Positions 53,821 to 55,644 of a DNA stretch of 64,000 nt are shown in pieces. The translations under genes and the position numbers were made by a program. Source of the DNA: Escherichia coli (GTDB taxonomy: Bacteria; Pseudomonadota; Gammaproteobacteria; Enterobacterales; Enterobacteriaceae); NCBI RefSeq assembly GCF_003334355.1, contig NZ_QOWP01000010.1. The stretch is one strand, 5' to 3'. The number at the start of each line of letters is the position of its first letter. Position 1 is the first letter of the stretch. A model generated the notes under the pieces. The model was not told the origin of the DNA. It did not search any database and saw only the letters and a list, made by a program, of their open reading frames with translations.

Positions 53821-54523
53821 TACGTGGAACAGATTGGCGCTCTTGATTTTCGCCGTTTTATCGCTGCTGGTGGCGGGTGAATTGCAGGCAGGAGTGGTGG
53901 TCGGCGGAACGCGATTTATCTTTCCGGCAGACAGAGAATCGATATCTATTTTACTGACTAATACCAGTCAGGAATCCTGGCTTATTAACAGTAAAATCAA
54001 CCGCCCAACGCGTTGGGCCGGGGGGGAAGCGTCGACAGTGCCAGCACCATTACTGGCCGCTCCGCCACTTATTCTCCTGAAGCCCGGTACGACAGGCACG
54101 TTGCGCTTGCTGAGAACGGAAAGCGACATCTTGCCTGTGGATCGCGAAACGCTATTTGAGTTAAGCATTGCCAGCGTGCCATCCGGCAAAGTTGAAAATC
54201 AGAGCGTAAAAGTGGCGATGCGCTCGGTATTTAAACTGTTCTGGCGACCCGAAGGTTTGCCGGGCGACCCGCTGGAAGCTTATCAACAATTACGCTGGAC
54301 ACGGAATTCGCAGGGTGTACAACTCACTAACCCAACGCCTTATTACATTAACCTGATTCAGGTGAGTGTAAATGGTAAAGCGTTAAGTAATGTGGGAGTT
54401 GTGCCGCCTAAAAGCCAGCGTCAGACAAGCTGGTGTCAGGCAATCGCACCGTGTCATGTCGCCTGGCGGGCGATAAATGATTACGGCGGGTTGAGTGCAA
54501 AGAAGGAGCAAAATCTGCCCTGA
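53813..54523 (+). CDS. ycbF: periplasmic pilus chaperone (second chaperone of the operon)
   Basis: Trimmed to the ATG at 53813 (MTNTWNRLALLIFAVLSL, 236 aa); PapD-like. Confidence 0.8.
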   Translation: MTNTWNRLALLIFAVLSLLVAGELQAGVVVGGTRFIFPADRESISILLTNTSQESWLINSKINRPTRWAGGEASTVPAPLLAAPPLILLKPGTTGTLRLLRTESDILPVDRETLFELSIASVPSGKVENQSVKVAMRSVFKLFWRPEGLPGDPLEAYQQLRWTRNSQGVQLTNPTPYYINLIQVSVNGKALSNVGVVPPKSQRQTSWCQAIAPCHVAWRAINDYGGLSAKKEQNLP

Positions 54524-54532
54524 AACAGGTTC

Positions 54533-54548
54533 GGAAAACGTTTGCGTT
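54533..54548. promoter_or_regulatory. PurR box upstream of pyrD
   Basis: ggaaaacgtttgcgtt: its complement aACGCAAACGTTTTCc matches the 16-bp PurR operator consensus (ACGCAAACGTTTTCNT). Confidence 0.6.
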
Positions 54549-54633
54549 TTTTTTGCCGCAGGTCAATTCCCTTTTGGTCCGAACTCGCACATAATACGCC
54601 CCCGGTTTGCACACCGGGAATCCAGGAGAGTTC

Positions 54634-55644
54634 ATGTACTACCCCTTCGTTCGTAAAGCCCTTTTCCAGCTCGATCCAGAGCGCGCTCATGAGTTTACTT
54701 TTCAGCAATTACGCCGTATTACAGGAACGCCGTTTGAAGCACTGGTGCGGCAGAAAGTGCCTGCGAAACCTGTTAACTGCATGGGCCTGACGTTTAAAAA
54801 TCCGCTTGGTCTGGCAGCCGGTCTTGATAAAGACGGGGAGTGCATTGACGCGTTAGGCGCGATGGGATTTGGATCGATCGAGATCGGTACCGTCACGCCA
54901 CGTCCACAGCCAGGTAATGACAAGCCGCGTCTCTTTCGTCTGGTAGATGCCGAAGGTTTGATCAACCGTATGGGCTTTAATAATCTTGGCGTTGATAACC
55001 TCGTAGAGAACGTAAAAAAGGCCCATTATGACGGCGTCCTGGGTATTAACATCGGCAAAAATAAAGATACGCCAGTGGAGCAGGGCAAAGATGACTATCT
55101 GATTTGTATGGAAAAAATCTATGCCTATGCGGGATATATCGCCATCAATATTTCATCGCCGAATACCCCAGGATTACGCACGCTGCAATATGGTGAAGCG
55201 CTGGATGATCTCTTAACCGCGATTAAAAATAAGCAAAATGATTTGCAAGCGATGCACCATAAATATGTGCCGATCGCAGTGAAGATCGCGCCGGATCTTT
55301 CTGAAGAAGAATTGATCCAGGTTGCCGATAGTTTAGTTCGCCATAATATTGATGGCGTTATTGCAACCAATACCACACTCGATCGTTCTCTTGTTCAGGG
55401 AATGAAAAATTGCGATCAAACCGGTGGCTTAAGTGGTCGTCCGCTTCAGTTAAAAAGCACCGAAATTATTCGCCGCTTGTCACTGGAATTAAACGGTCGC
55501 TTACCGATCATCGGTGTTGGCGGCATCGACTCGGTTATCGCTGCGCGTGAAAAGATTGCTGCGGGTGCCTCACTGGTGCAAATTTATTCTGGTTTTATTT
55601 TTAAAGGTCCGCCGCTGATTAAAGAAATCGTTACCCATATCTAA
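54634..55644 (+). CDS. pyrD: dihydroorotate dehydrogenase (quinone)
   Basis: Trimmed to the ATG at 54634 ([23 protein letters not shown], 336 aa). Confidence 0.95.

Follow-up and report, generated by a model that had tools for sequence, protein, structure and literature searches.

Purine and pyrimidine control elements in the promoter and leader region of Escherichia coli pyrD

Described control of pyrD, pyrC and carAB

Two classic forms of regulation meet in front of pyrD: cross-pathway control, since a pyrimidine gene is here subject to the purine repressor, and the sensing of the CTP/GTP ratio by RNA polymerase, which responds to it by choosing where to start. The literature on the pyrD leader reportedly comprises Frick et al. 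1990, Sorensen et al. 1993, Vial et al. 1993 and Wilson & Turnbough 1990, with Larsen & Jensen 1985 said to be a further primary paper on the gene, and the related pyrC system is reportedly due to Wilson et al. 1992 and Choi & Zalkin 1990.

Regarding the pyrimidine side, a 2019 review (PMC6524683) describes that transcription of pyrC and pyrD in E. coli and Salmonella begins preferentially at C residues six to seven nucleotides past the Pribnow box when the CTP/GTP ratio is high, that the extra C residues let a stable 5' hairpin form which inhibits translation initiation, and that a low ratio leads to starts at G residues without the hairpin. The lowered translation also changes the decay of the pyrC transcript (PMC6524683). 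This start switching at pyrC and pyrD was reportedly shown in Salmonella, to judge from the title of Sorensen et al. 1993 and from the summary in PMC6524683. Regarding the purine side, a PurR ChIP-chip peak has been reported at pyrD by Cho et al. 2011 (PMC3159470), where binding was detected only with exogenous adenine and where the direct repression of pyrD by PurR is described as shown earlier. Both PMC3159470 and PMC6245113 credit Choi & Zalkin 1990 together with Wilson & Turnbough 1990 with the finding that PurR represses pyrC and pyrD weakly, and Charlier et al. 2018 (PMC6245113) describe this repression as comparable to the three- to four-fold repression at carAB P1. Footprints or ChIP signals of PurR at this site, as well as the loss of purine repression upon mutation of the central CpG, are reported in the literature on which PMC3159470 draws.

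E. coli pyrC shows the same two-layer logic as pyrD: a PUR box (AGGAAAACGTTTCCGC), then C and G starts, and then a CCGG...CCGG hairpin before the start codon. The two genes differ in how these elements are spaced. The pyrC box abuts the core promoter, whereas that of pyrD is located about 40 bp further upstream with its centre at about -61. The pyrC hairpin overlaps the Shine-Dalgarno sequence GGAG with its 3' arm (GCCGGAG), whereas the pyrD hairpin ends 5 nt before the one of its own gene. The pyrC promoter is also devoid of the invariant GGTCAATTCC block found in pyrD. The carAB P1 promoter likewise belongs to the pyrimidine pathway, and PurR represses it weakly through a PUR box that precedes the core promoter (PMC6245113); this box has its centre at -128.5 and functions as part of a larger nucleoprotein complex, while the pyrD box, at about -61, lies beside a T-tract.

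In the window, by which we mean the whole 64 kb stretch of E. coli DNA analysed here, pyrD is found on the + strand at 54634..55644, with its ATG at 54634; it encodes a quinone-dependent dihydroorotate dehydrogenase of 336 aa according to the open reading frame and the RefSeq annotation of identical DNA. In the matching E. coli genomes the annotation at this place reads ycbF (fimbrial chaperone) followed by pyrD, and the ycbF stop codon occupies 54521-54523. The window is identical to K-12 MG1655 over the 131 bases upstream of pyrD, which cover the entire ycbF-pyrD intergenic region, and positions 54380-54760 find a match in all 5,426 complete E. coli genomes of the collection, many at 100% identity. 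The closest described system is the promoter-leader of pyrD in Salmonella typhimurium and E. coli (RF02373). It is the same element, already known from Rfam RF02373, PurR ChIP-chip and the classical pyrC/pyrD literature. The region almost certainly represents pyrD's own promoter and leader in E. coli, on which two characterised controls, one by purines and one by pyrimidines, are superimposed.

In vivo PurR occupancy, purine repression and nucleotide-sensitive start switching are taken here from the literature, the fold-repression and the starts coming from reviews and reference lists. The elements themselves, their uniqueness, Rfam membership, the start-dependent hairpin energy and the family-wide conservation were read from DNA. 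For the comparative part one genome per species was used, which gave 80 Enterobacteriaceae pyrD loci with 91-99% protein identity and, together with the window, 81 sequences. The region has a certain value for calibration, since a first-pass annotation made from the letters of the window had recovered an experimentally validated regulatory architecture with coordinates right to one base.

The PUR box and the promoter region

The PurR operator is a 16-bp near-palindrome at 54532-54547, centred on the CpG at 54539/54540, which reads CGGAAAACGTTTGCGT on the + strand and ACGCAAACGTTTTCCG on the - strand. The first-pass annotation had described a near-consensus PurR box on the complement of 54533-54548; the reverse complement of this interval is AACGCAAACGTTTTCC, in agreement with its quotation, and the box is indeed present with a single mismatch to the consensus, its coordinates needing a shift by one base. 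Compared to the classical consensus ACGCAAACGTTTTCNT, from which it differs at that one position, the box is the sole match in 64 kb even when three mismatches are allowed, and none of 100 shuffles contained a match at one mismatch or fewer. Compared to the looser ChIP-derived consensus ACGNAAACGTTTGCNT it has two mismatches, a level at which shuffled sequence yields a mean of 0.83 matches. As chance is not negligible with this second consensus, the case for PurR rests on position, published ChIP and conservation and not on the match alone.

Taking C54601 as +1, the box extends from about -69 to -54 with its centre at about -61, which is 87-102 nt ahead of the ATG of pyrD. The motif reported under the ChIP-chip peak at pyrD (CGGAAAACGTTTGCGT; Cho et al. 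2011, PMC3159470) corresponds letter for letter to the + strand of 54532-54547. In the alignment, 79 loci and the window share the box core G-AAACG-TTGC without any change, next to 16 upstream columns with about 0.05-0.4 bits. The proposal of PurR control over pyrD is therefore borne out by a published peak with the identical 16-mer, by the reported weak repression and by the conservation of the core.

The one locus with a degenerate PUR box belongs to a Pluralibacter MAG (L040), in which GGACAACGGTTGCC is found at the distal register, approximately 100-115 nt upstream of pyrD; a second weak box match is present further upstream, and T-tract, promoter and hairpin are intact. Throughout the compared loci (L003-L082) the box occupies one of two discrete registers, with either 12-13 or 22-23 nt separating it from the invariant GGTCAATT downstream, and the more distant one, 10 bp farther upstream, is that of Enterobacter, Klebsiella, Kosakonia and others. 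The spacing of one helical turn between the two registers suggests a constraint on the helical face.

Directly after the box, and overlapping its last base, the T8 run that had been pointed out earlier, with no role assigned to it, is present at 54547-54554 on the + strand, corresponding to about -54 to -47. It is part of a conserved upstream A/T tract, as all 80 aligned sequences have TTTnTTG (54549-54555 in the window) with constant spacing to the core promoter. Positions -54 to -47 are said to be the T-rich part of the distal UP subsite, reportedly after the work of Estrem et al. 1998 on UP elements. The tract is probably an UP-like element supporting a promoter with a weak -35.

The core promoter itself is composed of the -10 hexamer CATAAT (54590..54595, + strand), of which ATAAT is invariant in all 81 sequences and which is the Pribnow box of the start-site counting in the literature, and of a presumed -35, TTCCCT, at 54567-54572, a poor match separated from the -10 by a 17-bp spacer. 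This -35 is contained in the block GGTCAATTCCCTTT (54561..54574, + strand), which reads GGTCAATT(CCCTTT) in the alignment of 80 sequences, GGTCAATT being 100% conserved. A strict sigma-70 scan called no promoter at pyrD owing to the poor -35; this result was not taken to speak against a promoter, given the invariant -10 and a -35 that is merely weak. A weak TTCCCT would hardly seem to require the near invariance of GGTCAATTCCCTTT in 80 sequences, and the block might be a binding site for a further factor. By eye, GGTCAATTCC resembles a - strand TTGACC -35 or a sigma-E-like GGAATT; both candidates were dropped, as a -10 at the right spacing is missing.

Seen over the whole promoter, the comparative data add a clean phylogenetic footprint, in which box core, T-tract, GGTCAATT, ATAAT, hairpin arms and Shine-Dalgarno sequence are invariant and the intervening sequence drifts, and they add the modest question of how PurR represses from -61. 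In the purine control as we propose it, PurR with hypoxanthine or guanine bound would sit on 54532-54547, some 61 bp upstream of the start, and would modestly lower transcription. Since the box abuts the conserved T-tract (-54 to -47) next to a weak -35, we infer that the repressor may disturb the contacts that RNA polymerase makes upstream, of the kind between alpha-CTD and UP elements, and not occlude the core promoter. The explicit version, in which PurR displaces alpha-CTD from an UP-like T-tract (54547-54554) that compensates for the weak -35, is put forward tentatively and seems rather doubtful; the location of the box 10 bp farther upstream in many genera, where it would not overlap the T-tract, weakens it. 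UP displacement, the helical-face constraint and a factor binding GGTCAATTCCCTTT did not appear in the reviews and the ChIP paper, which were the sources covered.

It could be argued that the palindrome is a chance match or a non-regulatory relic and that pyrD is under pyrimidine control only. Chance alone provides approximately 0.8 matches per 64 kb to the ChIP-derived consensus at two mismatches, a centre at about -61 is unusually distant upstream for a repressor, and the repression reported is weak (PMC6245113). However, the classical consensus at one mismatch or fewer was matched in 0 of 100 shuffles, the in vivo PurR peak carries exactly the same motif (PMC3159470), and the core is invariant in 80 sequences with neighbouring columns at about 0.1-0.3 bits, and we regard this reading as next to negligible. 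Another reading would let the ycb/elf fimbrial operon upstream end at an intrinsic terminator made of palindrome and T8 together (54532-54554), which would then have no role in the control of pyrD, in line with a T run located 24 nt past the ycbF stop codon and with no other + strand terminator being found between ycbF and pyrD. Yet the stable stem expected before the T run is absent (54520-54556 folds with an MFE of -5.5 kcal/mol, z = +0.2), the terminator scan itself calls nothing on the + strand between ycbF and pyrD, and the tract is kept in many genera with a divergent ssuE upstream, where consequently no + strand transcript reaches it. The missing stem and the conservation of the tract without an upstream + strand gene rule out a terminator role for palindrome and T8, and a region serving the fimbrial operon instead of pyrD is extremely unlikely.

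Start sites, leader hairpin and ribosome binding site

Downstream of the -10, the sequence CCCGG at 54601..54605 (+ strand) is predicted to be the alternative start-site cluster, given that ATAAT-N5-CCCGG is present in 81/81 sequences and that the positions match those of PMC6524683. C54601 and C54602 lie 6-7 nt after the -10 (predicted CTP starts) and G54604 and G54605 9-10 nt after it (predicted GTP starts). The same CCCGG is the 5' arm of a GC hairpin which had been noticed in the first pass; arms and loop are as described there (cccgg 54601-54605, tttgcaca 54606-54613, ccggg 54614-54618), except that the hairpin ends at 54618 and not at 54617. According to Rfam structure, folding and conservation, the leader hairpin at 54601..54618 (+ strand) is CCCGGU/ACCGGG with the loop UUGCAC. 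The Rfam family RF02373 (PyrD_leader), whose structure has these six pairs CCCGGU/ACCGGG and a 6-nt loop, matches 54566-54639 over its full length (1-74) with 97.9 bits compared to a gathering score of 47. Other Rfam matches (RmaA and SNORA57) were discarded as noise, being far under their gathering thresholds with E values of about 0.7-0.9.

The stability of the hairpin depends on where the transcript begins. For starts at 54601, 54602, 54603, 54604 and 54605 the hairpin-only dG is -10.3, -7.2, -3.9, -1.9 and 0 kcal/mol, respectively, and the probability of the pair G54604-C54615 drops from 1.00 to 0.28 and to 0 as the start moves downstream. In the 81 sequences the mean hairpin dG is -9.2 for the C start and -1.9 for the G start. 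In these folding predictions the full hairpin forms only in C-started transcripts. The z-score of whole-leader folding is unremarkable (-0.7 to -1.0), and the hairpin owes its credibility to conservation and to its position relative to the -10 element, not to energy alone. The architecture ATAAT-N5-CCCGG-(7-8 nt loop)-CCGGG-AATCC-AGGAG-N5-ATG is found in 81/81 sequences. Covariation in the stem was not detected, as both arms are invariant in the 81 sequences, which is uninformative in either direction.

The Shine-Dalgarno sequence AGGAG is located at 54624-54628 on the + strand, exactly where the first-pass annotation had it, with the hairpin 5 nt upstream and the AUG 5 nt downstream of it, and AATCC-AGGAG-AGTTC-ATG is conserved in 78-80 of 81 sequences. 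Partition-function folding predicts no base pairing between hairpin and Shine-Dalgarno sequence, and the predicted unpaired probability of AGGAG is 0.21-0.28 at every start site; sequestration of the ribosome binding site by base pairing is thus unsupported for pyrD by this folding. With no such pairing and a constant accessibility, any translation block at pyrD would have to be steric or kinetic, exerted via proximity, a steric effect inside the 30S footprint being possible.

In the proposed pyrimidine control, RNA polymerase would start at C54601 or C54602 when CTP is high relative to GTP, and at G54604 or G54605 when CTP is low relative to GTP. The C-started RNAs would carry the full CCCGG arm, and the stable hairpin formed with it, ending 5 nt short of the Shine-Dalgarno sequence, would lower translation initiation; the G-started transcripts would be without the hairpin and well translated. 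The block of the ribosome site would in this scheme be steric and not due to base pairing. The transfer of the start switching from Salmonella to E. coli would follow from sequence identity, the Salmonella enterica locus (L014) being identical to the window from the -10 to the ATG. Nucleotide-sensitive start selection with a translation-limiting hairpin, as initially suggested for this leader, fits PMC6524683, RF02373 and the start-dependent folding, the mechanism itself being based on the literature.

As for the palindrome further upstream, alternative roles have to be considered for the inverted repeat at 54599-54620, which could mainly be a stabiliser of the mRNA 5' end, a palindrome bound by a protein at the DNA level or a terminator on the - strand. 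A scan flags the repeat as terminator-like on the - strand, RNA pairing is indistinguishable from conservation of a DNA sequence in a stem that is invariant, the hairpin is unpaired with the Shine-Dalgarno sequence, and the decay of the pyrC transcript is reported to be altered by reduced translation (PMC6524683). None of these roles, however, explains the register ATAAT-N5-CCCGG in 81/81 sequences, with C and G at 6-7 and 9-10 nt, the arms are kept while the loop varies between 7 and 8 nt, and no - strand gene converges on the repeat, pyrD itself running away from it on the + strand. The scan call of a - strand terminator at 54620-54599 was accordingly rejected, as it concerns the same inverted repeat and has no gene context. 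Together these alternatives are highly unlikely to be the main role of a repeat that we read as the start-dependent leader hairpin.

The fimbrial operon beside the box and genomic variation

The upstream side of the PUR box is variable within E. coli. About a quarter of the genomes (1,359/5,426) match only from window position 54534 rightwards. In two examples of this kind (L001 2990-3025 and L002 2990-3025) pyrD adjoins a divergent ssuE, and box and tract read AAGAAAACGTTTGCTA-TTTATT compared to CGGAAAACGTTTGCGT-TTTTTTT in the window. The T-tract is accordingly polymorphic in E. coli, with TATTTATT in the genomes not carrying the fimbrial operon: the form with the fimbrial operon as neighbour has GCG and T8 after the box, whereas the form with ssuE as neighbour has GC and TATTTATT. 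In most other genera too the upstream neighbour is ssuE, and ycbF is found in this place only in Escherichia sp. E1V33 and Pseudocitrobacter. With ssuE as the neighbour in some E. coli and in most genera, the ycb/elf fimbrial operon is to be considered an insertion between ssuE and pyrD. Its right edge, the ycbF stop codon, is 8 nt from the PUR box. The insertion altered the T-tract and the outermost positions of the box and left the core intact.

The 54380-54760 segment has 5,429 matching places in the E. coli genomes, four of them on plasmid-typed records, and three genomes carry two copies. Within the comparative set, one locus (L039, CACSKA010000002.1) is labelled 'Chryseobacterium sp. 18061'. 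It shows a typical Enterobacteriaceae ssuE-pyrD arrangement with 91% PyrD identity and an intact PurR box and leader, and the assembly is probably mislabelled or contaminated.
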